Origin: Candidatus Entotheonellaceae bacterium
GTDB lineage: Bacteria; Tectomicrobia; Entotheonellia; Entotheonellales; Entotheonellaceae
NCBI GenBank assembly: GCA_965238075.1
Contig: OZ250173.1
Location: 2,496,001-2,560,000 of the forward strand
Length of the DNA stretch: 64,000 nt
Reading direction: 5' to 3'
In this document: piece after piece, positions 2,689 to 63,608 of the stretch
How the letters are laid out: every line of letters starts with the position of its first letter
How positions within the stretch are numbered: position 1 is the stretch's first letter
Translations under genes and position numbers: made by a program
The notes under the pieces: model-generated
Seen by the model: the letters and a program-made list of their open reading frames with translations, nothing else
Told to the model about the DNA's origin: nothing
Databases searched by the model: none

Positions 2689-4743
2689 TCACTGCAGCGT
2701 CTCCAGGCTTTCTTGCGGTTCGCGGATGATGCGCGGGGTGATGAAAAACAACAATTCGTCGGTGCTGTCAAGGTTACGGGTTCTGCGGAAGAGCCAGCCC
2801 AGAACGGGGATTTTCGAGAAGAAGGGCACGCCGTCCTCGCTGGTGCTCATGTCGCGGGTGTAGAGGCCGCCGATGACCACCGTATCGCCATCGCGCACCA
2901 GCATTTCGGTGGTGGCTTCGCGGGTAATGATGGTGGGCACGCCGTCGCGCGAGGTTCGCGTGAAGTCGGCGGCGTTGCGCGAGGCCACGATCTTCATGTT
3001 GATGAAGCCGTGTGGCGTTACGTGCGGGGTGACGCGCAGGCTGATGCTGGCGTCGGCGAACTGCGTCTGGGTGCCCTGATTCGCGGAAGTGGTCTCGAAC
3101 GGAATGCGCCTGCCGCTCTGGATAAGGGCTTCCGTGTTGTCCAGCGTAGCAATCCGCGGCCTGGAGATCACCTTGCCACGCCCGGAGGATTCCAGGGCGG
3201 AGAGGTGAACGTCGAGAAAGCTGCCGCCGATGCTGGCGAAGGAAATGCCCATCGAGCCGCCGGCCCCCGTTCCGACCAGGGCGGGCAGGTCCAGAATGAA
3301 GTTGCCGGGAACGTTGGAGCCCGCACGGGTTCCCGCCCCGAAAATTGATACGGCGTTGGGAAACGACGCGTTGATTTTCTCTTCCGTACGCCCGGCAAGT
3401 TGCACCCCAAGATCGCGCAAGAAGTTGCGGGAGGACTCGACGATACGCGACTCGATCATGATCTGCGGTGTCGGGCGATCCAGCGTCGCCACCAGATCGG
3501 TTATCGTGCTGATGGCGGCCTGCGTATCGTTGACGATAATCGTATTGGTGCGCGTATCGACAGCCAGTGAGCCTTTGTCGCTCAACAGTTTCTCCAGGTT
3601 CGGCTGCAGGGCGGCGGCGTTGGCGTAGTTGATGGTGACCACCTGCGTGAACGTCGGCTGGATTTGCCGCTGTATCTCCTGCTCCCGAAGCCTGGCCTCG
3701 CGTTTCTTGGCGAAATGCTCCAGCGGCGCGATGCGGATGACGTTGCCGGACCGTTCGTGTCCCATGCCGTTGATGCTGAGCATCGCGTCCAAGGCCTCTT
3801 TCCACGGCACGTCATCCAGCCGAGTGGTGACTTTACCCTGCACATCGGCCCCGGCGATGATGTTCACCCCTACCGCGTCAGCGATCAGCCGCAGGACGTC
3901 GTGAAGGTCGGCTTCCTGAACGTCGAGGAAGATGGTTTCCTCGCTGGGCACAGAAGACGGCTCGGCGGGCTCCGATGGCGGTTGTTCCAGGGCTGCTTCG
4001 TCCCCCGGGACTTCTACGCCCGCTTCGGACGGCACCGACTCTGCAGCTACTTCGTCCGCCGCGGAATCCGTAATCGTTTCGGAGGCCGGGGGTTCTGCGG
4101 GTATTTCCCGCGTTGTGGATTCTGCCGACGTTTCAGGTGTCAGAGATTCTTCGTCCCTCTCGGGCAACATCGGCTCTGTGGCAGCATCTTGCTCCGTGGG
4201 CGTCGCATCCGCTTCAGGAACCGGGATCGGGCTCTCGGCAGCACCGGCGTCAGGCTGTCGGTGGGCCAAAGCGAGCCGTATAACCCCCTCGTCCTGTTCC
4301 ATCTCAAACGGAACGGCTTCATGCAGATAAACCCTGATGACGACCTGCGGTTGCATGTTGCGAATCTGTTCCACCGCCACCACTTTGGTCACGGTGCCGC
4401 CCGGGTCCTGCACGGCAAAAACCGATTGTTGGGTGCCCAGGCGCGTTGCTTGAATGTCCAGGGCCACGTGGGTTGGCTCGTAGCGCTGATGGGCGCGTAT
4501 CTGCGGCGGCGTGCCCGAGGTCCGCACGACAACCACCGCTGCATCGACTTGGTTTTCAAAGGAGACGTCGGTTACGACCGTTGCCGCGTCGCCGAAGAGG
4601 TCCGGCACCGGCTCGGGCTGCCACAGGGCGTCGGATCCGGCTGGCGTGTACGGCTCCAACTCGGTGCGGCATCCGCTGACGCACAGGGCTGCGACAAACC
4701 CAAGGACCACAAAAAAGAAGATTCCGGCAAGGCGCATACTCAC
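2689..4743 (-). CDS. pilQ: Type IV pilus secretin PilQ (lipobox, AMIN-like region, acidic linker)
   Basis: C-terminal secretin motifs (QIMIESRIVE, LSALESSGRGKVISRP, VPFFSKIPVLGWLFR, ELLFFITPRII). Last gene of the pilMNOPQ operon. Confidence 0.92.
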   Translation of the reverse strand: MSMRLAGIFFFVVLGFVAALCVSGCRTELEPYTPAGSDALWQPEPVPDLFGDAATVVTDVSFENQVDAAVVVVRTSGTPPQIRAHQRYEPTHVALDIQATRLGTQQSVFAVQDPGGTVTKVVAVEQIRNMQPQVVIRVYLHEAVPFEMEQDEGVIRLALAHRQPDAGAAESPIPVPEADATPTEQDAATEPMLPERDEESLTPETSAESTTREIPAEPPASETITDSAADEVAAESVPSEAGVEVPGDEAALEQPPSEPAEPSSVPSEETIFLDVQEADLHDVLRLIADAVGVNIIAGADVQGKVTTRLDDVPWKEALDAMLSINGMGHERSGNVIRIAPLEHFAKKREARLREQEIQRQIQPTFTQVVTINYANAAALQPNLEKLLSDKGSLAVDTRTNTIIVNDTQAAISTITDLVATLDRPTPQIMIESRIVESSRNFLRDLGVQLAGRTEEKINASFPNAVSIFGAGTRAGSNVPGNFILDLPALVGTGAGGSMGISFASIGGSFLDVHLSALESSGRGKVISRPRIATLDNTEALIQSGRRIPFETTSANQGTQTQFADASISLRVTPHVTPHGFINMKIVASRNAADFTRTSRDGVPTIITREATTEMLVRDGDTVVIGGLYTRDMSTSEDGVPFFSKIPVLGWLFRRTRNLDSTDELLFFITPRIIREPQESLETLQ

Positions 4744-5696
4744 CCTCCTTTGCCATCCTGGCGCCGCAGCGGCAGGGTGAGCGGTTCCGAAATGACTTCG
4801 TTTCCAGGTGTCACGTAAAGTTCCTCTATAATGAGCGCCTGCTCGCGGATTTCGGAAACGCGCCCGCCGTGCATGCCCATCCGGGTGCCGACCGTGACGT
4901 AATACCCCTTGCCGTCCGGCGCCTTGACCAGCGCTTTGCTGCCGAAGCTGCCCCGCACAATGGCTACCAGCTTCAGGGCCGCCAAGTCGAAACGTTCCAG
5001 CGGCTCCCGCACCTCGTCGGGTGCACGTTCCACGCGCTTGGGGGTCGCTGGCGGGGGCGCCTCTTTGACGAGGGGTTCCATGGGGTCGCGCCGTCCCTGG
5101 GGGTCATAACCGAAGCCTGCAGGCGCAGCCATAGGCCCCACGCCCGCTTCGTCTTCGCCAAGATAACGAAACGTAGTCGCCAGGCATTGCGTCGCTCGTC
5201 CCGTCGCCCGTATGTCGAGCTGGTTCACCTGAATAAGGCCCGGCAATGCGGTCAAACCATCCAGGAATAAGCCGACGGCGTGATAGGGACCTTTCAGTTC
5301 CATGGTGACTGGCATTTCCGCGTACAGTTCGTTGCGTTGCTCGTTCTGGGGTCGCAGTAAGTCGATCCGCAGGCCCGTGCGAACGCCAAGGTCGGAAATC
5401 CGGCGGATCAGGGCGGGTGGGTCCTGTTGCCGCGGCAGGAACTGTAGATGCTGGGTCAACTCGGTTCTGAGTGCAGCCACGGCATCCTCCAGTGCCTCGA
5501 CCTGTGCGGCGATGGCGCGTTGACGCTGCAACTGTTGCGCCCTTGAGGCGTTGCGCTCCTGCAAGGCGGCCAGTTCTTCGGCGCGCAGTTGGTGCACGGC
5601 GTTCCAATAGGTGCCCCCAGCCAACAGCAAGAGAACCGGCACCATCACCCAGCGATACAGGCTCGGAATTGTTTCGAGGCGCTCTATCCAGCCCAT
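4740..5696 (-). CDS. PilO-PilP fusion protein
   Basis: N-terminal TM plus PilO domain (YAEMPVTMELKGPYHAVGLFLDGL), continuous with a PilP domain (YDPQGRRDPMEP, REPLERFDLAALKLVAIV, ALVKAPDGKGYYVTVGTRMG). Confidence 0.85.
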   Translation of the reverse strand: MGWIERLETIPSLYRWVMVPVLLLLAGGTYWNAVHQLRAEELAALQERNASRAQQLQRQRAIAAQVEALEDAVAALRTELTQHLQFLPRQQDPPALIRRISDLGVRTGLRIDLLRPQNEQRNELYAEMPVTMELKGPYHAVGLFLDGLTALPGLIQVNQLDIRATGRATQCLATTFRYLGEDEAGVGPMAAPAGFGYDPQGRRDPMEPLVKEAPPPATPKRVERAPDEVREPLERFDLAALKLVAIVRGSFGSKALVKAPDGKGYYVTVGTRMGMHGGRVSEIREQALIIEELYVTPGNEVISEPLTLPLRRQDGKGG

Positions 5697-5699
5697 GGA

Positions 5700-6281
5700 T
5701 TACTCCGATTGCCTCACGGCCTTGTCGCGGTTGTCGGGCGGCGACAGGTGAGCGGACACGATGAAGGCAGCGATGGACCTGCCGTGCAGCGTCCCGGCTT
5801 TCGATTCCACCAGGGCAACACGTGAGAACGGTGCGCCGGGGGCCGCAGCAAGATTCTCCATGAACGTCGCGATGCCTTCATTGTCAAATGATTTGCCCGT
5901 GATCTCAAGACCTGCGTCTGTATCGCGTATGGCGTCCAGCCATATCTGTTCCGGGAGGCTCTGACTGATAGTTGTAAGCAGCCGCGCCGGCTGTCTTTGG
6001 GTGCTGCGCAGGCCGCCGATCACCGATACCTTGTGTTCGAACTCCGCCTTCTCGATCTTTAATCGTTCCGTTTGTTTCAGGAGGGGTCGCAACGTTTGCA
6101 ACTCGGCTTGCATCCGCCGTTGTTCGTCACGTTGCGCCGTCAGTTGATCGTTCTGCGTTCCATGCAATCGGGCGCCGACCGCCGCCAGGACGAGTAGAAT
6201 CAGCAGGGTCAACGACAGTTGCCACCACGTCTCACGGTGACGCCTGGAGCTTTGCGTTCCGAGCAGATTGATGCGGATCAC
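5700..6281 (-). CDS. pilN: Type IV pilus assembly protein PilN
   Basis: MIRINLL PilM-binding motif, TM, coiled coil, LPEQIWL and ITGKS...IATFMENL. Confidence 0.9.
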   Translation of the reverse strand: MIRINLLGTQSSRRHRETWWQLSLTLLILLVLAAVGARLHGTQNDQLTAQRDEQRRMQAELQTLRPLLKQTERLKIEKAEFEHKVSVIGGLRSTQRQPARLLTTISQSLPEQIWLDAIRDTDAGLEITGKSFDNEGIATFMENLAAAPGAPFSRVALVESKAGTLHGRSIAAFIVSAHLSPPDNRDKAVRQSE

Positions 6282-7354
6282 CGGTCGCCTCGCCTCCTCA
6301 AAGCCAGTCCCACACCCACCGCGGCGAGGGGCGCCATGTCTTGCAGGTAGGCGGCATCGAACTGGCTGTCGTCACAGTAAACGCGGTCGAACGGATTCGC
6401 CACGCTGACCGGCAGCCCCAGGTGCGCGCCGAGAAAGCGGTCGAGACCCCTGATGCAGCCGCACCCGCCGCTGATCACGACGCGGTCGACGCCTCGGTTG
6501 GTCGTGGTACGAAAAAGATCGAACGAGCGCTGGAGTTCGCCGCCAATCTCGGTGCTCACCGTTGCCATGACGTCGAGCAGGGCCTCTTGCCGCGCGGCGT
6601 CAATGTGTCCATGGCCCATTTTCAGCGCTTCGGCCTCATCGTGATCGATACCCAAAGCGCTCTGCACCGCGGACGTGTAGCGGTCGCCGCCGATGGCGAC
6701 GGCGCGCTGAAACGTTGTCGCGCCGTTGGATACGATGTTGACGTTCATCGTACTAGCGCCGATATCGACGAGGGCTATCGGCGTGTCTGCCAAGCCGTGC
6801 GCCGCCTCGAATGCGTTCGCCAAAGCCAAAACGTCGATATCGACTACGGCCGGCCTGAGACCAGCGGCGGTGAGCAGACTCGCTCGCTCGGCAACCCTCG
6901 CTTTCCGCGCCGCCACCAGCAAAACGTCCATCTGACCGCCCGTGGCGTTGCCCGACGCCAGAATCCGGAAATCCAGGTTGATATCAGCCATGTCGAATGG
7001 AATATGCTGTTCCGCCTCCCATTGCATCGCTTCGGCCAGCTCCCTGTCGCTCATGCGGGGCAGGCGAATGGTCTTGGTCAGCACTGCTTGGCCCGAGAGT
7101 GCGACGGCCGTATCCCTGGCGCTGATTTTCTCCATGCGGATCAGATTGCGGATCGCTGTGACCACGCTGCCTTCGTCCATGATGGTATGATCGACGATGG
7201 CTCGAGGGGGCAGGGGCATGACGCCAAAGTTGACGAGTTGGTAACTGCCTTGGCGAGCCTTGAGTCTGACCAGCTTGATCGAATGGCTGCCGATGTCGAG
7301 CCCCGTCAGCAGGGGTTTGCGGCGGAAACGCGGGAGGCGTTGCAGAAGAGCCAT
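6278..7354 (-). CDS. pilM: Type IV pilus assembly ATPase-like protein PilM
   Basis: GLDIGSHSIKLV, EAEQHIPF, LVDIGASTMN, VISGGC and VANPF motifs. Confidence 0.93.
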   Translation of the reverse strand: MALLQRLPRFRRKPLLTGLDIGSHSIKLVRLKARQGSYQLVNFGVMPLPPRAIVDHTIMDEGSVVTAIRNLIRMEKISARDTAVALSGQAVLTKTIRLPRMSDRELAEAMQWEAEQHIPFDMADINLDFRILASGNATGGQMDVLLVAARKARVAERASLLTAAGLRPAVVDIDVLALANAFEAAHGLADTPIALVDIGASTMNVNIVSNGATTFQRAVAIGGDRYTSAVQSALGIDHDEAEALKMGHGHIDAARQEALLDVMATVSTEIGGELQRSFDLFRTTTNRGVDRVVISGGCGCIRGLDRFLGAHLGLPVSVANPFDRVYCDDSQFDAAYLQDMAPLAAVGVGLALRRRGDR

Positions 7355-7379
7355 GGGTAGAAGTCAACTCCCGGCGAAA

Positions 7380-8525
7380 ATGTTCTGGCACTTGCGGAAA
7401 ATTTGGCACTTTCGGCATCAGCGCGGGGCACCGGAAGTCTCCCTGGCGGAGACGGTCAAGGGCCTGCAAGCGCTGCTGCTTGATGACGTGGCGGCGGTCC
7501 TGTCGGACACGCTGCGTCAGGTGTTTTCACGCCCGGTGAGCATCTCCGAACTCCGCCGTCTTGACATTGCTTTTTTCCAGGAGGGTCGTGAGCAGCGCGT
7601 CTGGCGCGCCCAAGCCAGCCTGCAAGACGGTGCCGCGGGTACGTTCGGCCTCATTATAGCGCGGTCTATGGGAGCCAGTCATGACGTGACGCAGCGCGAT
7701 TTCGGGCATCTGCAGTGCCTGTCCGAATTGCAGCCGCGCTACTGCGTGCGGCCTTATGTGCAAGCGACGGCACCGGTGGCCGACGGCCTGGCGGCGTACA
7801 CGGTGCAATGGTGCGAGTCGCACAAGGAACTGGTGTTCGAGGTGAGCCGCGACGGCGGCACCTTTCTGATCAACCGCCCCGAGGGATTCCGGGTCAAGCC
7901 CGGAATGACGTCAGGGGCGGCGCACCGCCACTTCAGCCTACAGGCGTCCCGCGGCGTTTGGCGGCGGATTGCAGAAGTGTTGTGCTGGTATCCGGGCCTG
8001 CGCGGCGTCAACGTGCAGGCGGGGGATTTCATCGGCCGGGTGGGACCGGACGGGCAGGTTGATCTGAAGCTGACGACGGCTCGGCAGTTGGCGGCAGATA
8101 CGTCGCCGGAAGCGCATATCGGGGCCATGTTGCGGGGCATGATCACGGCAAGCGGCTACCTGAGCGACGGGCGGCAGCCCTTCGACCGCGGCATGTCTTA
8201 CGAAACTTTTATGTTGCGTATGCGGGGGGTGCTGGAGCGGCGCTTTGGCGACAGGGCAGCGGCAATGGCCCGGCAGCAGTGGGAGCTGTTTCGGGCTGGG
8301 GCCTTTGCCCGGCAAGAGGATTGGCTGAAGGAAGATTGCGTGCTGGGAACCTTCGACCGCTGGCGGGCCGATTATCCGGCGGACGTGGCTTGGCGTGAGA
8401 CGAAACGGCAGTGGCTGGCCTACGCCGAGGCGGTACGGACTGGCCGCATGGCGCCGTCGTGGTGGTTCCCGGCGGGGGAAATTCCGGAGTTGCTGGAGTG
8501 GCTGGGGCAACGGCTCAAAACATGA
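7380..8525 (+). CDS. Hypothetical protein (start uncertain: 7353 or 7380)
   Basis: Long ORF filling the gap between pilM and hflC with protein-like composition. No family recognised. Confidence 0.6.
   Translation: MFWHLRKIWHFRHQRGAPEVSLAETVKGLQALLLDDVAAVLSDTLRQVFSRPVSISELRRLDIAFFQEGREQRVWRAQASLQDGAAGTFGLIIARSMGASHDVTQRDFGHLQCLSELQPRYCVRPYVQATAPVADGLAAYTVQWCESHKELVFEVSRDGGTFLINRPEGFRVKPGMTSGAAHRHFSLQASRGVWRRIAEVLCWYPGLRGVNVQAGDFIGRVGPDGQVDLKLTTARQLAADTSPEAHIGAMLRGMITASGYLSDGRQPFDRGMSYETFMLRMRGVLERRFGDRAAAMARQQWELFRAGAFARQEDWLKEDCVLGTFDRWRADYPADVAWRETKRQWLAYAEAVRTGRMAPSWWFPAGEIPELLEWLGQRLKT
7884..7909. repeat. GTCA-type REP-like palindrome inside a CDS
   Basis: GGATTCCGGG-TCAAG-CCCGGAATGAC (reverse complement GTCATTCCGGGCTTGACCCGGAATCC). 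Same architecture as the intergenic copies near 34.5-34.6 kb. Confidence 0.65.
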
Positions 8526-56378: not shown

Positions 56379-57124
56379 TGGTCATGGCAACGTTCAAGCT
56401 GTGGCGCGGCAACCGCGATGCGGGCCGCTTCGAGGACTATCAAACCGACATCACCGAGGGGATGGTCGTGCTCGATGCGGTGCACCAGATCCAGGCCGAT
56501 CAGGCCCAGGATCTCGCCGTGCGCTGGAATTGCAAGGCGGGCAAGTGCGGCTCGTGTTCCGCCGAGGTGAATGGCAGCCCGAAACTCATGTGCATGACCC
56601 GCTGCAGCGACATCCCGCTGGATCAGCCGGTGACCATCGAGCCGATGAAGGCGTTTCCGCTGATCAAAGACCTCGTTACCGACGTGTCGTGGAATTTTCA
56701 GGTCAAGAAGCGCATCAAACCCTTCAAGCCCCGGCAACCCGATGCGGACGACGGCACGTGGCGCATGGCGCAGGCCGACATCGACCGTGTGCAGGAGTTC
56801 CGCAAGTGTATCGAGTGCTTCCTGTGCCAGGACGTCTGCCACGTGCTGCGTGAGCACCAGATGCACGATGCCTTCATCGGCCCGCGGTTCTTCGTTTACG
56901 AGGCCTCCCTGGAAATGCACCCGCTGGACGTCGAAAACCGTCTCGGCGACCTCAAGGACACCGGCGGCATCGGCTACTGCAACATCACCAAATGCTGCAC
57001 CAAGGTCTGCCCCGAAGACATCACCATCACCGACAACGCCATCATTCCCCTCAAGGAGCGCGTGGTCGATGAGTTCTATGACCCGGTGCAGAAACTCTTC
57101 CGCGTTTTCAAACCGAAGCGTTGA
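56378..57124 (+). CDS. sdhB: Succinate dehydrogenase iron-sulfur subunit
   Basis: CKAGKCGSC...C, CIECFLCQDVC and CNITKCCTKVCP motifs. Confidence 0.95.
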   Translation: MVMATFKLWRGNRDAGRFEDYQTDITEGMVVLDAVHQIQADQAQDLAVRWNCKAGKCGSCSAEVNGSPKLMCMTRCSDIPLDQPVTIEPMKAFPLIKDLVTDVSWNFQVKKRIKPFKPRQPDADDGTWRMAQADIDRVQEFRKCIECFLCQDVCHVLREHQMHDAFIGPRFFVYEASLEMHPLDVENRLGDLKDTGGIGYCNITKCCTKVCPEDITITDNAIIPLKERVVDEFYDPVQKLFRVFKPKR

Positions 57125-57196
57125 CCCACCCCGACCTTCGATAGACCTGCCAGACCGGGGGGCGTTCGTTCGTCCGCCTTTACAACATTGAAAGCT

Positions 57197-57285
57197 GTAG
57201 GTCGGATTAGCCGCAGGCGTAATCCGACAGCAGAAGCTGTGCGGCGCAGTGGAATGTCGGATTATGCTTTGCTAATCCGACCTAC
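57197..57285. repeat. GTAG-type REP doublet (inverted pair)
   Basis: GTAGGTCGGATTAGCCGCAGGCGTAATCCGAC ... GTCGGATTATGCTTTGCTAATCCGACCTAC. Confidence 0.8.
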
Positions 57286-57380
57286 GTAGAACTGACGATC
57301 TTCTCAATGATTCAATATCGAAAGTATCGAACTGGAACGTCCGATTCGGGCGGGAAAAGTGGGTGGGGCCAAACAGGCAC

Positions 57381-57413
57381 AAAAAAAGGGACCTCGGAAA
57401 ACCGAGGTCCCTT
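57381..57413 (-). terminator. Intrinsic terminator downstream of pqqA
   Basis: Minus strand reads AAGGGACCTCGG-TTTT-CCGAGGTCCC followed by a T7 run. Confidence 0.9.
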
Positions 57414-57430
57414 ACGCATCAACAATCGTT

Positions 57431-57505
57431 TTAGCGATTGAGGATGTACATCGTGAGCTCAAAACCGAAACGCTTGTCCTGATAAGCAGGCTTGGTCCAC
57501 TTCAT
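57431..57505 (-). CDS. pqqA: Pyrroloquinoline quinone precursor peptide
   Basis: Manual translation MKWTKPAYQDKRFGFELTMYILNR (W.KP...D.R.GFE.TMY, E-x3-Y). AAGGAG RBS. Not in the ORF track. Confidence 0.95.
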   Translation of the reverse strand: MKWTKPAYQDKRFGFELTMYILNR

Positions 57506-57590
57506 TGATTCTCTCCTTCAGGGAGTCACTTCCCGTGGTTGTCATCCCCCGTTCAGCGAGGGAACTTGTCAACATCGTCATCATTATCTA

Positions 57591-57606
57591 TGCAAGCTGT
57601 GTGCCA
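57591..57606 (-). promoter_or_regulatory. Sigma54 (-24/-12) promoter of pqqA
   Basis: TGGCAC-ACAGC-TTGCA on the minus strand with correct GG-N10-GC spacing, 85 nt upstream of the pqqA start. Confidence 0.85.
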
Positions 57607-57771
57607 GAATTTCTTCAACCTTCTATCACCCCAGAAATAAGGCAGTTGCGGCCACAGGCCGTTTCCTGTCCGTCCGGCAAGCCCCTGCGACAGACTGTAG
57701 TATGGTACGCCCTGATTCTCCATAACCCACCTGTATACAAGCACTTATATTTCTGATACGTCGGTTGCGCC

Positions 57772-57800
57772 TGCAAAAAATGTCGCACCCCTTTTTGCGA
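57772..57800. promoter_or_regulatory. Candidate upstream activating sequence for the NtrC-type regulator
   Basis: Inverted repeat TCGCA-N8-TGCGA overlapping TGCAAAAAATGTCGCA, about 165-195 bp upstream of the -24 element. Confidence 0.4.
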
Positions 57801-57804
57801 TGGC

Positions 57805-59241
57805 TCAGGGCTCAACAGGATCGGGCGATTTTTGCCGCGTCAGACGTTTGTTCAACGCCTGACGGGTCAGGCCGAGCATGCCGGCGGCGATGCCCTGATT
57901 GCCGTCGGCGCGTTGCAGGGCCTCGGCGATCAGCGCCTGCTCGGCTTCTTTCAGGGTCGGCAGACAGTCGGGGAAGAGGGACGACAGGTTTTCCAGAGCG
58001 GCGCTCGCTTGCGGGCCGTCGTCGGGGCCGTTGCGCCGGTCGAAGGCGATGGACCTGAAGGTTTTGAGCGACAGGACGCCGCCTTGGTGCTGGGCGACGG
58101 CGTCGAAGATCATCGCTTCCAGCTCGCGCACGTTGCCGGGGAACGCATACGTTTTCAGCAGGCGAAATAGCTCCATCGGCGGTGTCGGCGTGGGCTTGCT
58201 CAACTCCTGGGCGGCATTTTCCAGAAAATGGTTGATCAGCAGCGGCAGGTCTTCCTGACGCTCGCGCAGCGGCGGGACGTGTAGGTGGTGGGCCCGCAGG
58301 CGGTAATAGAGGTCCTTGCGAAACGCCCCGGCGTTGACCCGCTCCACGATGTCCACGTTGGTCGCCACGATAACCCGCGCGCTGCTCTGCCGTGGATTAT
58401 CGGCGCCGAGCGGGTAATACGTCCCCTCCTGCAGCAGGCGCAGCAATTTGACCTGCGACGGGATGGCCAGGTCGCCGATTTCGTCCAGGAACAAGGTGCC
58501 GTCGGCCGCCTGCGTGATCAGCCCGCTGCGCGCCTGGTCGGCGCCGGTAAAGGCGCCCCTGGTGTGGCCGAACAGGGTGTCGGAGAACATCGTGTCATCC
58601 AGCCCGGCGACGTTGACGGCGACCAGTTCCCCCTGCCCGCGCGACACCGTATGCACCGAGTGCGCCAGCAGTTCCTTGCCGGTGCCCGTCTCGCCGGTGA
58701 TCAACACCGGCTGGCGCGACGCGGCAATGGCCTCGACGTAGCGGAAAATGGCATGCATCGCCTTGCTCTGCGTCACGATGGCGGTAAAGGCGTCGCGCTG
58801 GTCGAGCCTTTCGGTCAGCAGGTGTTCCTTCAGCGACAACACCTCCTCGCGCAGGTTGCGGATTTCCAGCGCCCGCGTCACCGATGACACGAAGCGGTTC
58901 TTCTCCACCGGCTTGACAAGGTAGTCGATGGCGCCGCCCTGCATGCACTGCACGGCGGTGTCCAGGTCGTTGGTGGCGGTCATCAGAATCACCGGCACGT
59001 CGGGATAGCCGGCGGCGATCTGCCCGAGCAGCTCTTGGCCGGTGACGTGCGGCATGGCGAGGTCGAGCACGACGACGCCCACGTCCTGCTCGCTCAGCAG
59101 CGGCATGACCTCGCGGCTGTCGTCGAGGGTGACGACGTGCTTGACGCCCGAGGAGCGCAGCAACACGCTGGCGCTGCGCAAAAGCTGCGGCTCGTCGTCC
59201 ACCAGCAGAATGGGGAGCGGCGATGAAGCGGTAGACGCCAT
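57805..59241 (-). CDS. Sigma54-dependent NtrC-family response regulator (REC-AAA+-Fis HTH)
   Basis: LVDDE and VVLD receiver motifs, GETGTGKE, GAFTGA, LFLDEIGD, FRKDLYYRL, PGNVREL and C-terminal HTH. Confidence 0.95.
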   Translation of the reverse strand: MASTASSPLPILLVDDEPQLLRSASVLLRSSGVKHVVTLDDSREVMPLLSEQDVGVVVLDLAMPHVTGQELLGQIAAGYPDVPVILMTATNDLDTAVQCMQGGAIDYLVKPVEKNRFVSSVTRALEIRNLREEVLSLKEHLLTERLDQRDAFTAIVTQSKAMHAIFRYVEAIAASRQPVLITGETGTGKELLAHSVHTVSRGQGELVAVNVAGLDDTMFSDTLFGHTRGAFTGADQARSGLITQAADGTLFLDEIGDLAIPSQVKLLRLLQEGTYYPLGADNPRQSSARVIVATNVDIVERVNAGAFRKDLYYRLRAHHLHVPPLRERQEDLPLLINHFLENAAQELSKPTPTPPMELFRLLKTYAFPGNVRELEAMIFDAVAQHQGGVLSLKTFRSIAFDRRNGPDDGPQASAALENLSSLFPDCLPTLKEAEQALIAEALQRADGNQGIAAGMLGLTRQALNKRLTRQKSPDPVEP

Positions 59242-59260
59242 GTTTGGTGTGCTCCTTGTG

Positions 59261-60970
59261 CTAAACCTGCAAGGCTTCCGGCGCGGACACCCGCGATTCG
59301 GCAGGGCACGGCAGCATCACGCGCGCCCGGGTTCCCTGGCCGGGGGTGGACTCGAATACCAGGTTGCCGCCGTGGTCGCGCACCAGCGTGTAGGTGATGG
59401 CGAGGCCGAGGCCCGTGCCGCCCTGCTCCTGCTTGGTCGTGAAAAACGGATCGCATAGCCGTTCGACGTTTTCCTGCGGGATGCCGATACCGCTGTCCCG
59501 AACGTCGACCTCGACATCGTGGTCGTCCTGATTATAACGCGTGGAAACGGTCACCTGTCCGCTTTCTCCCGGCAGCGCCTCCAGGGCATTGGTGATGAGG
59601 TTGACCACCACCTGCTCAATTTGTTGCATATCGCCTTGCAATGGCGGCAGGCCGTCGGCGAGATCGACCTGGAAGTCGGTCGTCTTGGCGACGCGGTGGC
59701 GCAGCAGATTCACTGCCCGTTGCACCGCCTCGTTGACCTGCAAGGTGGCCTGCACGGCCTGCTGCCGGGGGCGCGCGAAATCTTTCAGATTGCTGACGAT
59801 GCGTTCGATGCGCTGCGCGCCGACGTGCATGTCGCGGATAAGCGCAGGCACGGTCTCGCGCATTTCCGCGTACGGCAGCCCGCCAATGAGAAACTCGCCG
59901 TTCTCGTCGTGGTAATCCTCCAGAATGTGCTGCGCATCGCCCCACGCCTCGGCCAGCACGCGCGCATTCATCATCGTCAGATTATTCGGGTTGTTGATCT
60001 CGTGCGCCACGCCGGCAACCAAGGTGCCGAGCGCGGTCATCTTGTTGGCCTGGATCAGTTGCAACTCCTGCTCACGCGCTTTCTCTTCGAGGCGCGTGCG
60101 TTCGTCGATCTCACGGCGCAAGTTGGCATTGGCGCGCCCGAGGTCGCGGGCGTTGGCGCGCAGGCGATTGAACAGGTAGACCAGATAGGCCAGCAGCACG
60201 ACGGCCACCAGATACAGCAGGATGCGGTAGGTTTGCGCCCGTGCTTCCATCTGGCTGTAGTACCGCAGCGAGGCGTCCCGCAGCGCTCGCACCCGTGTCG
60301 TGGTGGGAGCCGCCAGCAGTTGACGCAGCAGGGTATCCACTTCCGGCAGCACGTCGACGATCAGGTGCCCGTGCAAGGCCAGGGTGTGCAGATCGTGCTG
60401 TAACATGGGAACGCCGGTCATTTGGTTGAGCGCCGTCTTGATTTCGTTGCTGACGGCCCGCTGCGGCGTGCGCACAAAGCGCAGCATGGCGTTGGACAGG
60501 GTGCCGATGGCCGCGGCCACGGCGCGGTCGTTCACTGCCGTCTGGGTGCTGAGCACGTGGCCGGTGTGCAGGAAATACATCAGCGAGTTGCGCAGCAGGG
60601 CGTTGTCGGCCTTGAAGTATTCGACCAGCGTTTCCTTCTCCCGCACGGCGCGCGACAGTTCCGCGATGTGCCCGCCGATGGCCGCGGCAAGCTCCTCGGA
60701 CGCCGCCGCGTTCCAGGATTCCAGGTCTTCCAGGGCGCGGTACAGCCCGTCTATCGCTTCCGACAATGAATCGTAATGGGGTAACAAACCGGCGCGGGCC
60801 AGTAGCACGTCGCGGTTCAGTTCGGCATCGTGCACCTCAAAGACGTGCAGCGCCTCGTACATGCGTTGCCGCAAGCCCACATCCGGGCTTCTGCTCTGAA
60901 GCAACAAAAACGTCAACAGCAGCAAGAGGCCGGTGACGACCAGAAGCCGCCTCCATGGGATGCCCATCAT
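59261..60970 (-). CDS. Sensor histidine kinase with an all-helical (DAHL-like) periplasmic domain
   Basis: Two TMs flanking a helical sensor (L.HYDSL, FKADNALLRNSL.YF), H-box AHEINNP, and N/G1/F/G2 boxes. Confidence 0.9.
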   Translation of the reverse strand: MMGIPWRRLLVVTGLLLLLTFLLLQSRSPDVGLRQRMYEALHVFEVHDAELNRDVLLARAGLLPHYDSLSEAIDGLYRALEDLESWNAAASEELAAAIGGHIAELSRAVREKETLVEYFKADNALLRNSLMYFLHTGHVLSTQTAVNDRAVAAAIGTLSNAMLRFVRTPQRAVSNEIKTALNQMTGVPMLQHDLHTLALHGHLIVDVLPEVDTLLRQLLAAPTTTRVRALRDASLRYYSQMEARAQTYRILLYLVAVVLLAYLVYLFNRLRANARDLGRANANLRREIDERTRLEEKAREQELQLIQANKMTALGTLVAGVAHEINNPNNLTMMNARVLAEAWGDAQHILEDYHDENGEFLIGGLPYAEMRETVPALIRDMHVGAQRIERIVSNLKDFARPRQQAVQATLQVNEAVQRAVNLLRHRVAKTTDFQVDLADGLPPLQGDMQQIEQVVVNLITNALEALPGESGQVTVSTRYNQDDHDVEVDVRDSGIGIPQENVERLCDPFFTTKQEQGGTGLGLAITYTLVRDHGGNLVFESTPGQGTRARVMLPCPAESRVSAPEALQV

Positions 60971-61995
60971 GATCCGTCCTCGACCGGGAGGGTCAACAAC
61001 TGTCCCTGGTATTCGCCGGTCAGCGTGTACAGGAACTGTACGATGAGCTCGATCTCCTCGGTGCGCAACGGCCTGCCGAGCTGTCGGGTGGCCATCAGGT
61101 CCACCGCGTTTTCCAGGGTCTGCACGCGTCCGTCGTGGTAATAGGGCGCCGTCACCGCCACGTTGCGCAGGCTGGGCACGCGAAAGACCTGCCGGTCTCG
61201 CTCGGCGCCGGTGGCGCCGAAACGGCCCGCATCATCGTCATCGCGCGGTCGGGTCTGGCTGCGAAAGATGCCGAAGCGCTGGAACATGTTGCCGCCCACG
61301 TTGACGCCCTGGTGGCAGGCGACGCAACCGTAGGATTTGAACAGGTCGTAACCTCGTTTTTCAGCATCGCTGAGTACGTCGGTATCGCCGCGCAGATACT
61401 GATCGAAGCGCGAATTGGGCGTGTTCAGCGAGCGCTGGAAGCTGGCCAGGGCGTGTCGCACGTTCGCCCGCGTCAGCCCGTCGGGGTAGGCGGTGTTGAA
61501 GGCGCTCACGTAGTCGGCGTTAGCCTGCAACTTGGGCAAAACGTCCGCCCAATCGCTGTTCATGATGGTGGGGTCGTGGATGGCGGCCTCGGCTTCCGCT
61601 TCGAGCGTACGGAAGCCGCCGTCCCAATGGAAGCGGGAGTTCAACGCCACGTTGAAAACGGTCGGGGTGTTGCGCGGGTGCAGGCCGCCCGTGAGGGTCG
61701 GCGGCCGTGACACACCGTCGCCGCCGCCCTGGTTGAGCCGGTGGCAGGTGGCGCAGGAAAAGGCGTTGTTACGCGACAGGCGCGCGTCGTGAAACAGCTT
61801 CTCGCCGAGGGCGACCTGCCCGGCATCAAGATCGGTGGAAAGAGGAATCGGGACGATCGGCTCGCTGTCCCAGGCGCCTGCCGGCGGCAAGGGGGTTTCG
61901 GCGTTCGGCGTCGGCGCGGCGCAGGCGAGGTGCAGCGCCATGACGGCCAGCGCGATTCGCACAACAACTGATTTGCCGATAGCCCACACAGTCAT
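60967..61995 (-). CDS. Di-haem cytochrome c peroxidase/MauG-family protein, probable lipoprotein
   Basis: CATCH and CVACH haem motifs, LGEKLFHDARLS, RNTPTVFN, WDG, FRVPSLRN..TAPY.HDG and a lipobox-like LAC. Confidence 0.9.
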   Translation of the reverse strand: MTVWAIGKSVVVRIALAVMALHLACAAPTPNAETPLPPAGAWDSEPIVPIPLSTDLDAGQVALGEKLFHDARLSRNNAFSCATCHRLNQGGGDGVSRPPTLTGGLHPRNTPTVFNVALNSRFHWDGGFRTLEAEAEAAIHDPTIMNSDWADVLPKLQANADYVSAFNTAYPDGLTRANVRHALASFQRSLNTPNSRFDQYLRGDTDVLSDAEKRGYDLFKSYGCVACHQGVNVGGNMFQRFGIFRSQTRPRDDDDAGRFGATGAERDRQVFRVPSLRNVAVTAPYYHDGRVQTLENAVDLMATRQLGRPLRTEEIELIVQFLYTLTGEYQGQLLTLPVEDGS

Positions 61996-62033
61996 TTCCA
62001 GCCCTTACGCATCCATGGTGAAACAAGGCGCGC

Positions 62034-62062
62034 ATGCTAGGCAAGGGCGGTATGGCTGTCAA
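62034..62062 (-). promoter_or_regulatory. Candidate sigma70 promoter of the CCP-kinase-regulator operon
   Basis: TTGACA-N17-TAGCAT on the minus strand. Confidence 0.6.
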
Positions 62063-62194: not shown

Positions 62195-62842
62195 ATGACA
62201 ACGTCACCCGATCTGACGCTCCGCGAAGCCGCCGAATTGGCCGGCGTCACGAAAACAACCGTCGAGAAAGCGGTGGAGGCGAAGGTGATTCGGCCTCTGA
62301 CCCGCCCTGCGCGTTTGCGCGGCGGCTCGACGCGCTACGTGCCGTTGCGGGCGGTAACCTATTTCGCGGCACTTAAGCAGGCCAATCTTGTTGATCTGCC
62401 CGTGCGCCTCAAGAAGGCGCTTTGGAGTGGACTTGTCCGCCTGGGGTCTACGGAACTCGCACCGGTCGAATTCTCGCCGGGCACGGTTTTGCATCTGGAC
62501 GAGTTGGCCAACGAACCTTTCGAGGCGGCGGTGCGCTACAAGGCATCGCGGGACGCCCATATCGTGTCCGACCCGGAAACGCTTGGCGGCATGCCGGTAA
62601 TACGGGGCACACGAATCACCGTGTACTCGGTGCTGGGACGCTTGCAAGACGGCGACAGTATTGCCGACCTGGTGGCGGACAATCCCGACATCCCGCGCGA
62701 AGCGTTCGAAGCGGCGGCCATTTTCGCGCGTGCGCATCCCCTGAGGGGTCGCCCGGGCGTAATGCGGCGCGCCGAAGGTCATGACGCCGCATGCGTCTGT
62801 TTATTAATGAGTGCCTGTCTCCGCAAATGGCCCGCGAATTGA
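62195..62842 (+). CDS. DUF433-domain antitoxin-like protein with N-terminal HTH
   Basis: LTLREAAELAG and IVSDPETLGGMPVIRGTRITV...GDSI..L..D.P motifs. AGGAG RBS. Confidence 0.8.
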   Translation: MTTSPDLTLREAAELAGVTKTTVEKAVEAKVIRPLTRPARLRGGSTRYVPLRAVTYFAALKQANLVDLPVRLKKALWSGLVRLGSTELAPVEFSPGTVLHLDELANEPFEAAVRYKASRDAHIVSDPETLGGMPVIRGTRITVYSVLGRLQDGDSIADLVADNPDIPREAFEAAAIFARAHPLRGRPGVMRRAEGHDAACVCLLMSACLRKWPAN

Positions 62843-63093
62843 ACGCGAGCGGCCAGCATGTTGCTGAGCACCCTCTGGATTTCGGGGGGCGTGGCGACCC
62901 CGACCACCGTGTGTTGGAACGGTGCATCGCTCACGGACTGGTCATTGTTACCGAGAACGCTCGCGACTTCCGCGCGCTTGTCGCAGCCGAAGACCTTCAC
63001 CCTGGTCTGATTATCCTGCCCTGTGTCGGCCGTGAGCGGTCTTTCGCGCTTCTCCGAGCGGCGATGGACTATCTTGAAACGATGGGGAACGCC
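62791..63093 (+). pseudogene. DUF5615/PIN-like toxin, 3'-truncated
   Basis: MRLFINECLS, D..V and VIVTENARDF...HPGLIIL. After ~63093 the ORF reads the antisense of parE. Confidence 0.65.
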
Positions 63094-63315
63094 GATGAAG
63101 CGCTTCATCACGACGAAGTAGCGGAACGTGTGCCCTGGCGGATCGAGGTCTTTGTTGGTGCGGCCGAGAAGGGGAGATGCTGCGAGAGTGTCCAGCGCCG
63201 CCTGGAACTGTTCGCGCAGCCGGCGAGCCGATCGGACGCCAAACGGCCTCACGGTGTAGGCCGTGATTTCCCTGCGATCAAGCCTGGCCGCCGTGGAGAG
63301 AACGACCCGACTCAT
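63094..63315 (-). pseudogene. ParE/RelE toxin, 3'-truncated
   Basis: [20 protein letters not shown]...FG...A...SPLLGR...FRYF. Lacks the terminal strand and LHG.RD-type motif, then runs into the antisense of the PIN gene. Confidence 0.7.
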
Positions 63316-63608
63316 TCGGACGCTCGGCGTTCGGCTTCTTCCAGAGCGTCCAGTTCCTCTTCCCATTCACGGAAGAAGGTCTCGCCGTCCACAACTTCGC
63401 CCCGGTCGAGTTGGCCGGCGCCCTCCCGGATGAGCGTGCGGAGCCGCGTGAGCTCGGCTTGGCGCCGCTCTTGTCGATCTTCGAGCAGTCGCACGGCTTC
63501 CCTTACCACCTCGCTCGTCGACTGGTAACGCCCCGAGGCGACGCAGGAGGCGAGGAACTCAGCCTGCTGCGGCGTGAAGGACACGCTTATGTTTTCTCGC
63601 TTCGTCAC
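63312..63608 (-). CDS. ParD-family RHH antitoxin
   Basis: ISVSFTP...[21 protein letters not shown]...LI.EG. GGAGGAG RBS. Overlaps the parE start. Confidence 0.9.

Follow-up and report, generated by a model that had tools for sequence, protein, structure and literature searches.

Two-component systems of the NtrBC, ZraSR and AtoSC type combine a histidine kinase with an activator that carries receiver (REC), AAA+ (GAFTGA) and HTH_8 domains, and they act on an adjacent target from paired palindromes located about 100-200 nucleotides (nt) before a -24/-12 promoter. Other kinases have a partner outside the cytoplasm: in Agrobacterium, ChvE binds the periplasmic domain of VirA, and in the HbpS-SenS-SenR system of Streptomyces reticuli the extracellular haem-binding protein HbpS modulates the sensor kinase under redox stress. 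Here we describe a locus of Candidatus Entotheonellaceae bacterium, contained in a 64,000-nt stretch of contig OZ250173.1 (the window), in which genes for a di-haem protein related to the bacterial cytochrome c peroxidases (CCPs), a DAHL-domain histidine kinase and an NtrC-type regulator are followed by pqqA, the gene for the precursor peptide of pyrroloquinoline quinone (PQQ). All coordinates are those of the whole window, and every element of the unit (57378-62062) lies on the minus strand. We estimate a probability of about 0.6 for the circuit as a whole, consisting of a di-haem co-sensor, the DAHL kinase, the NtrC-type regulator and a stand-alone pqqA driven from a sigma-54 promoter.

The locus shares with NtrBC, ZraSR and AtoSC the histidine kinase, the REC-AAA+-HTH_8 activator, the adjacent target and the paired upstream palindromes, but differs in its periplasmic DAHL sensor, its di-haem partner and pqqA as the output. 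As in VirA-ChvE, a helical periplasmic kinase domain has a periplasmic partner, here encoded by the adjacent gene and predicted by modelling to bind; unlike ChvE, this partner is a haem protein rather than a sugar-binding protein, and the output runs through a sigma-54 activator. The idea of a non-cytoplasmic haem protein as co-sensor of a kinase recalls HbpS-SenS-SenR, although the protein families are unrelated, HbpS lacks the c-type di-haem peroxidase fold and its regulator is not sigma-54 dependent. The di-haem protein itself resembles the classical bacterial CCPs of known structure (1iqc, 1nml, 1eb7 and 9qdt) over about 280 aligned residues, with two CxxCH motifs, an inter-haem tryptophan and a methionine at the position of the E-haem ligand, whereas it lacks the Gln and Glu of a conserved peroxidase motif and its gene is operon-linked to a kinase. 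The newly recognised parts, within what is otherwise a sigma-54 two-component system whose kinase has a proposed accessory sensor in the periplasm, are pqqA as an output and the CCP/DAHL sensor pair.

A stand-alone pqqA has a precedent: the pqqA of Methylosinus trichosporium OB3b is separate from pqqBCDE and has a transcript of its own, with roughly 30-80 times the expression of pqqB-E (PMC3615186). The accessible part of that report mentions no regulator or sigma-54 promoter for the OB3b gene, whereas in the window pqqA has remained next to a sensor-activator cassette dedicated to it. In a Burkholderia region mentioned in PMC9088363, PQQ genes are accompanied by genes for a histidine kinase, a c-type cytochrome and a sigma-54 regulator, and this region might hold the same cassette. 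A sequence-only reading of the window had supposed the module to be undescribed, and a literature search agreed with this, in that no paper describing the module, or a sigma-54 promoter or dedicated two-component system for pqqA, was found (most subscription journals lay outside the search).

That reading had listed promoters, a CCP-family protein, a kinase, a GAFTGA-containing regulator, a palindrome, a ribosome-binding site, pqqA and a terminator, and each was found where it had been placed. The di-haem gene of the CCP_MauG family (60967-61995, 342 residues) encodes two CxxCH motifs and matches PF03150 with 172.5 bits. The sensor histidine kinase gene (59261-60970, 569 residues; DAHL, HisKA and HATPase_c) has a reading-frame start that overlaps the stop of the CCP gene by 4 nt. 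The regulator gene follows (57805-59241, 478 residues; Response_reg, Sigma54_activat, AAA_lid_14 and HTH_8), and its product has the parts of an NtrC-type enhancer-binding protein, namely a REC domain with D60 (93.5 bits), an AAA+ domain with an intact GAFTGA (189.7 bits) and a C-terminal HTH_8 (33.5 bits). Among the 25 NCBIfam models shown, it scores below the cut-off of every named equivalog, the best being NtrC (TIGR01818, 338.7 vs 558.6), with AtoC at 332.4 vs 714 and ZraR at 262.4 vs 760. Finally pqqA (57431-57505) encodes the 24-residue peptide MKWTKPAYQDKRFGFELTMYILNR, which is above the cut-offs of both TIGR02107 (34.9 bits, cut-off 20) and PF08042 (32.3 bits, cut-off 21.1). It contains GFELTMY, in which E16 and Y20 form Glu-X3-Tyr, and the Glu and Tyr of this motif are the residues of PqqA that are turned into PQQ.

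Between the regulator gene and pqqA lies the putative sigma-54 promoter TGGCACACAGCTTGCA (57591-57606; TGGCAC-N5-TTGCA); the window has no other match to TGGCAC-N5-TTGCW. At the customary distance from a -12 element, transcription of pqqA would be expected to start near 57579. A candidate upstream activating site, the 16-mer TGCGACATTTTTTGCA (site 1, 57772-57787), is located 181 nt upstream of the T of the -24 element; it sits inside the palindrome at 57772-57800 noted by the sequence-only reading and matches an equally spaced site in other lineages. A second candidate (site 2, 57686-57701, with the core TGTCGCAGGGG at 57692) lies at about -95, where the right half-site GTCGCA is kept and the left half has diverged. 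With rpoN found in the genome, the GG-N10-GC core in its TGGCAC-N5-TTGCW context, the upstream sites and the sigma factor expected of a sigma-54 promoter are all in place.

The same architecture recurs in other lineages. We compiled 15 loci, each oriented on its target gene, with a threshold for site 1 of at least 9/12 positions against TGCGAC-N4-GTCGCA. The shared signature, found across three phyla, is a TGCGAC-N4-GTYGCA palindrome about 180 nt before a -24/-12 element, usually with a second about 93 nt before it. In 14 of the 15 loci site 1 is found between -168 and -192, counted from the -24 T, and in 12 of them between -179 and -184; G004 (-192) and G058 (-168) are the outliers, and the Bryobacterales locus L048 has one site only, at -103. 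A full site 2 at -92 to -95 is present in six loci (G004, G010 and four gamma-proteobacterial loci). Leaders of 70-104 nt are the rule (14 loci), L048 being the exception with 197 nt. Furthermore, the stretch GNQG[IVL]AA..LG[LI][ST]RQALN[KR]RL in the C-terminal helix-turn-helix (HTH) of the regulator hardly varies among 11 orthologues, as would be expected if these recognise a common DNA site. Because promoter, sites and spacing are conserved in these 15 loci and in seven further metagenome loci, and because the HTH is near-invariant, we consider it very probable that the adjacent regulator drives the sigma-54 promoter of pqqA, as the sequence-only reading had proposed.

What changes from lineage to lineage is the target. 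The signature precedes pqqA alone in the six genomes of genus g1, pqqA-B onward in three genomes of g3, the cassette itself in L048, a gene for an RTX-repeat protein in L143, and a divergent gene for a 280-residue secreted protein in L052 (about 4700-5547), L142 (5996-6838) and L144 (6717-7559); the seven further metagenome loci repeat this last, gamma-proteobacterial arrangement. This conserved 280-residue protein has an N-terminal signal peptide and a C-terminal tail of VPLP, a hydrophobic stretch and KRKK, and gives no Pfam match. Looser criteria, on a noisy list judged by eye, add metagenome targets encoding a subtilase, a poly-gamma-glutamate hydrolase, VgrG, a hydantoinase and unknown proteins, as well as a divergent pair of an RTX protein and an ABC exporter. 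Sites or promoter were not recognisable in the acidobacterial loci L053 and L055. In L048, a 19-codon frame, MWKYQRTIVSTRCHDCGSG (6752-6811), lies behind a GGAAAGGAA stretch in the leader that separates the sigma-54 promoter from the CCP gene; this frame may be due to chance or may encode a small peptide.

Within the window's genus the order CCP-kinase-regulator-pqqA is kept in all five congeners, with identities of 88-90% for the CCP-like protein, 88-93% for the kinase and 95-98% for the regulator; PqqA is identical in four of them and 96% identical in the fifth. When the intergenic regions of the congeners are aligned, the upstream site, the -24/-12 element, the leader and the terminator stand out as conserved blocks. 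Of 17 genomes of the class, 10 yielded a pqqA, each a single copy, and these belong to genera g1, g3 and g6 only. In G007 (g3) a convergent gene for a solute-binding protein comes after the cassette, and beyond it are TGCAACGTTTGTTGCA, TGGTACGCGGCTTGCT, pqqA, a hairpin and pqqBCDE. In two further g3 genomes (G011 and G013) matching sites and promoter precede pqqA, a hairpin and pqqB on contigs that do not contain the cassette, and hence the sites stay with pqqA there. On the cassette contig of G010 (g6) the regulator gene is followed by the sites and TGGCACGGCCTTTGCT, and no target gene is reached before the contig stops; pqqA-pqqB of this genome lie at the end of another contig, and no exact overlap with the cassette contig was found.

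In the window's own genome (G000, a single contig of 3.35 Mb) the pqqA at 57431-57505 is the only copy. The genes pqqB, C, D and E, all above cut-offs, are located at 76.5-79.6 kb of G000, adjoining genes for a PQQ-dependent alcohol dehydrogenase and a MoxJ-like protein, with no pqqA at that locus. There pqqB is preceded by a sigma70-like TTGACA-17-TAGTAT, and no sigma-54 motif was found at the pqqB or alcohol dehydrogenase locus. Propellers of PQQ-dependent dehydrogenases were found at at least 10 separate loci of this genome. The view of pqqA as stand-alone was borne out, since it forms a separate unit with its own terminator and is the only copy. The further proposal that the circuit doses only the precursor peptide applies to the window's genus and fails in the sister genera, where the equivalent promoter reads pqqA, a hairpin and pqqBCDE; for this reason, control of the precursor alone appears to be a derived state of the window's genus. 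The most economical reading of these comparisons is an ancestral sigma-54-driven pqqA-BCDE, from which pqqBCDE would have moved in the window's genus to a dehydrogenase cluster while pqqA stayed beside its regulator.

The haem protein retains the hallmarks of its family. C81/C84/H85, C224/C227/H228, W124 and M301 are invariant in 13 orthologues and align with the solved peroxidases, of which the closest are 9qdt (E 4.8e-68), 1iqc (2.8e-62), 1nml (8.6e-60) and 1eb7 (1.8e-59). Matches to the MbnH-type structure 6e1c (2.3e-35) and to MauG (about 1e-15) are weaker, and the NCBIfam cut-off was reached neither for MbnH (TIGR04039, 188.4 vs 362.85) nor for MauG (TIGR03791, 155.9 vs 443.85). One motif has changed: WDGRA..L..QA.GP.....EM of 9qdt, 1iqc and 1nml, whose alignments were printed, reads WDGGFRTLEAEAEAAIHDPTIM in the window protein, with Gln replaced by E134, Gly-Pro by Ala-Ala and Glu by I144. 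The His that 1iqc and 1nml carry in the loop before PRN is also absent. The Glu position is I, L, V, M or K in all 15 aligned orthologues from activator cassettes and the Gln position is mostly His, while three distant homologues that are not activator-linked keep both residues. We take the motif Gln and Glu to be distal-pocket residues of the peroxide-binding haem (Gln104 and Glu114 of the Pseudomonas aeruginosa enzyme), and with these presumed roles their loss argues against ordinary peroxidase turnover. The label 'lipoprotein' given to this protein by the sequence-only reading is doubtful, as His occupies position -3 from the Cys, the motif is absent from orthologues of other genera and an A-x-A signal-peptidase I site fits better. 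Translation probably starts at the GTG at 61989, two codons inside the ATG that opens the frame, because the ATG is unconserved in the congeners.

The kinase consists of a first transmembrane helix (TM1), a periplasmic DAHL domain (about residues 28-250), a second transmembrane helix (TM2), HisKA with H323, and HATPase_c, the helices having been judged by eye as hydrophobic stretches. DAHL (PF19443, residues 30-249) scores 184.2 bits against a cut-off of 38, HisKA 27.5 and HATPase_c 96.1, and residues 12-280 match the VirA-like model NF010411 with 296.9 bits, below its cut-off of 647. H323 is invariant in alignments of orthologues. The proteobacterial kinases, together with that of L045 (G008, a genus of the window's family), have an extra cytoplasmic segment of about 120 residues between TM2 and HisKA; it is PAS-like by eye (alignment columns about 290-430) and absent from the window and acidobacterial kinases.

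We modelled the haem protein (residues 36-342) together with the kinase (27-252), using our own alignments of 13 and 14 rows. The complex scored 0.81, 0.81 and 0.79, compared with 0.20 for the best of three controls; this score mark is reached by 116 of 157 solved complexes and by 2 of 215 mismatched pairs, a calibration that is rough here since our own alignments were used. The runs share at least 95% of their contacts, and the partner has a predicted local confidence (pLDDT) of at least 83. In the modelled interface, haem protein residues 220-244 (around the second CxxCH), 43-48 and 305-308 face kinase residues 64-77 and 114-135, stretches that hold the invariant Y66, D67, E117, D122, A124, N128 and S129. 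A sequence search among solved proteins gave no match to the DAHL part, so the score is unlikely to reflect a known complex. We give even odds to the haem protein being a bound co-sensor of the kinase.

Beyond the class, the cassette is widespread. A scan of species-representative genomes with the kinase alignment gave 78 loci, in 14 of which the match covered the DAHL part. A CCP homologue lies directly upstream of the DAHL kinase in 13 of these 14, and an orthologous regulator with 61-95% identity lies downstream in nine (L047-L055), whose records are titled Bryobacterales, Vicinamibacterales, Acidobacteriota, Burkholderiales, Gammaproteobacteria and Methylobacter tundripaludum. In the remaining five loci, which are more distant, the kinase partners different receiver proteins; four of them keep the CCP gene and L079 does not. 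Searching metagenomes with only the DAHL part yielded 80 loci. The CCP gene is directly upstream, on a strict rule, in 63 of the 65 loci with room for it, while in L173 and L210 it appears by eye to be overlapping or in pieces, and the regulator is directly downstream in 39 of 44. The cassette was present in four of 61 genomes of the family of G045, and its distribution is therefore patchy. A plasmid collection searched with the kinase gave distant matches only. One genome, represented by L051 and G042, is unpublished; it is included in the cassette counts and in the absence of the pqqA promoter reported below. In L053 (Vicinamibacterales), a gene for a 680-residue PQQ-dependent dehydrogenase (5380-7422) begins 22 nt after the regulator gene, probably in the same operon, which connects the cassette with quinoproteins a second time and independently; a search of that genome gave no pqqA. 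In L076 (5062-6561), a distant Burkholderiales CCP-DAHL pair with a REC-REC regulator, genes for a LysR regulator and an AhpC/TSA peroxiredoxin stand immediately upstream.

The sequence-only reading had treated the cassette as a PQQ module and had suggested that relatives be tabulated by downstream gene and sigma-54 motif. The tabulation upheld the recurrence of the site and promoter architecture and not that of the downstream gene, and the cassette is better described as a widespread general sensor with lineage-specific outputs, apparently wired to PQQ only in the window's family. This description follows from three observations: only the driven gene changes, no pqqA was found near the 80 metagenome cassettes, and the signature promoter was not found before pqqA in the cassette-bearing gamma-proteobacteria G042, G043 and G045.

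The last two observations also count against the proposed circuit, in that the cassette is not specific to PQQ, and several other points do so too. The sigma-54 motif alone is not rare, with an average of 0.12 matches in shuffled sequence and at least one match in 12 of 100 shuffles. Site 2 is degenerate in five of the six genomes of the window's genus, and the palindrome also scores as a weak terminator-like hairpin just past the stop codon of the activator gene. The compared genomes are related, hence the counts overstate independence and the 15 loci amount to about five distinct arrangements, to which the looser criteria suggest a few more. In G010 (L041, 2382-5257) the CCP gene (DVDQR*VALGQ) and the kinase gene each contain an in-frame stop, yet the regulator gene and promoter look intact; misassembly or decay of the sensor may account for the stops. 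The pocket roles of the missing Gln and Glu are presumed from general knowledge of the solved peroxidases, a literature search on these residues having given nothing usable, and the complex of haem protein and kinase is a modelled one, whose score expresses model confidence rather than measured binding. Taken furthest, such doubts would mean that gene order implies no wiring, another activator serving the pqqA promoter or the promoter being non-functional, and the cassette regulating something else. The genome indeed encodes four full-length sigma-54 activators, three of them besides the cassette regulator, and the outputs of the cassette differ elsewhere. However, equally spaced palindromes adjoin orthologous cassettes in different phyla with unrelated targets, the sites precede pqqA in G011 and G013 even on cassette-free contigs, and a search of the genome for a second regulon member returned pqqA only, with no other 16-mer site beside a sigma-54 motif. 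We therefore regard an absence of wiring as scarcely probable.

Two other explanations give the haem protein a different role. It could be merely a co-expressed ordinary or variant enzyme, for example of detoxification or electron transfer, with the regulator driving pqqA and the DAHL domain sensing a small ligand by itself. Its far closer relation to the classical peroxidases (E 4.8e-68 to 1e-55) than to MauG, the retention of both haem sites, W124 and M301, and the LysR and AhpC genes of the Burkholderiales variant would all suit such an enzyme. Yet the peroxidase Glu is lost in every activator-linked orthologue, and the CCP and kinase genes remain adjacent (overlapping where checked) in 13 of 14 genome loci and 63-65 of 65 metagenome loci, alongside several regulator types. 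The complex model, moreover, beats its controls and places the interface on the most conserved DAHL motifs, so that a mere enzyme seems unlikely to us. Alternatively the protein could be a modifier similar to MauG or MbnH, the signal being an oxidised residue of the DAHL domain or of another partner. MbnH and MauG are its best NCBIfam matches, its canonical pocket residues are changed and close docking on DAHL is predicted. Both family scores are nevertheless far under their cut-offs, and the solved structures favour the classical peroxidases by about 50 orders of magnitude in E-value. MauG carries Tyr where the E-haem ligand of the peroxidases is Met, and the Met aligned with this ligand is invariant here; a modifier of this kind is very improbable.

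The co-sensor circuit that we prefer would operate as follows. A sigma70-type promoter would read the CCP-like gene, the DAHL kinase and the regulator as one unit. The di-haem protein would sense a haem-linked state of the periplasm, such as how reduced the cytochrome c pool is or whether peroxide or some other ligand of haem is present, and is predicted to dock through the domain of its second (electron-entry) haem on the most conserved face of DAHL. H323 of the kinase would phosphorylate D60 of the regulator, which, bound at about -181 and -95, would open the sigma-54 promoter and yield a short, terminated pqqA mRNA; a separate sigma70-like promoter serves pqqBCDE at their distant locus. Each PQQ molecule made uses up one PqqA peptide; given this and the separate promoter of pqqBCDE, the circuit would set the precursor supply for at least 10 PQQ dehydrogenases in this genus. 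Binding of the regulator at these sites, dependence on RpoN, the co-sensor role and the nature of the signal are inferred, whereas the parts, their conservation, the common promoter architecture and the single pqqA come directly from the sequence comparison. The unrelated outputs elsewhere suggest a general extracytoplasmic cue rather than a quinoprotein-specific one. The LysR and AhpC neighbours of the Burkholderiales variant are a hint towards oxidants, and a redox or oxidant signal as such is a doubtful, still speculative assignment. A broader and likewise tentative proposal is that the cassette represents a cross-phylum class of redox or oxidant sensors, with a catalytically disabled peroxidase as co-sensor and a -180/-93 promoter signature; in Entotheonella-related sponge symbionts it would gate, through the consumed precursor peptide, the supply of PQQ to a large set of quinoprotein dehydrogenases.

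The remaining elements of the locus are in keeping with separate cassette and pqqA units. The sigma70-like promoter of the cassette operon (62034-62062, TTGACA-17-TAGCAT) agrees with the consensus at 10 of 12 positions; two sites of this quality occur in the scanned region where 1.0 was expected. Its -10 box is kept in all six genomes of the genus and its -35 box in five. Similarity among the congeners begins at this -35 box and the flanks further upstream are unrelated, and therefore the cassette unit starts there. The 5' leader of pqqA (57506-57579, about 74 nt, with the ribosome-binding site AAGGAG at 57518-57513) is conserved in the congener alignment, more strongly than the spacer between the upstream site and the promoter, and a hairpin is predicted in it; it might be a point of post-transcriptional control. 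A search of 57100-57900 against Rfam gave no match at the gathering score, the best being ncS54 (25.7 vs 43) over the terminator. This intrinsic terminator of the pqqA unit (57378-57413) has a 12-bp stem with eight G-C pairs at 57413-57386 followed by a T run, and is kept in all six genomes of the genus (the window and five congeners); several stem positions vary among congeners with pairing apparently retained, as read from the alignment by eye and with no formal count.

Just upstream of the cassette (62195-63608) are toxin-antitoxin-like genes (DUF433, DUF5615/PIN-like and a ParD antitoxin), which are present in G001 and absent from the flanks of the other congeners. We considered and rejected a mobile module, as the downstream sdhAB-like flank is common to four of the five congeners and only the upstream toxin-antitoxin insertions vary. 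Assemblies break shortly past the pqqA terminator, owing to a repeat of high copy number at 57181-57361. Runs that contain the locus include some labelled sponge metagenome. Four RNA-library runs hold it (X12, X13, X17 and X18); they were available as contigs only, which carry no start, end or strand information. Summed contig depth over the repeat was 2455 (X12) and 3094 (X13), compared with about 107-161 beside it, and many loose contig ends fall at 57196-57285 in all four runs. The break of contigs at 57370 is thus due to the repeat and not to the end of a transcript. In X18, contig depth was 32.7 at the 3' end of pqqA vs 2.4-6.8 on the cassette genes, a measure that cannot rank genes.

To our knowledge, the signals that control PQQ synthesis are poorly understood, and the locus offers a testable circuit in an uncultured sponge-associated lineage rich in quinoproteins (at least 10 paralogues in 3.35 Mb). 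It would be a natural case of control exerted on the consumed precursor alone, with the presumed ancestral whole-operon form still present in sister genera for comparison. The site consensus and its spacing provide a portable rule that predicts direct targets of the cassette in Acidobacteriota, Proteobacteria and the window's class, and the predicted targets are often secreted proteins, such as RTX proteins with an exporter, VgrG and a subtilase. The proposed circuit would also give the peroxidase fold a new function and provide the DAHL sensor domain, which has been little studied, with a partner. If the circuit is true, PQQ supply would be coupled to the state of the very periplasmic electron-transfer chain that the cofactor feeds.

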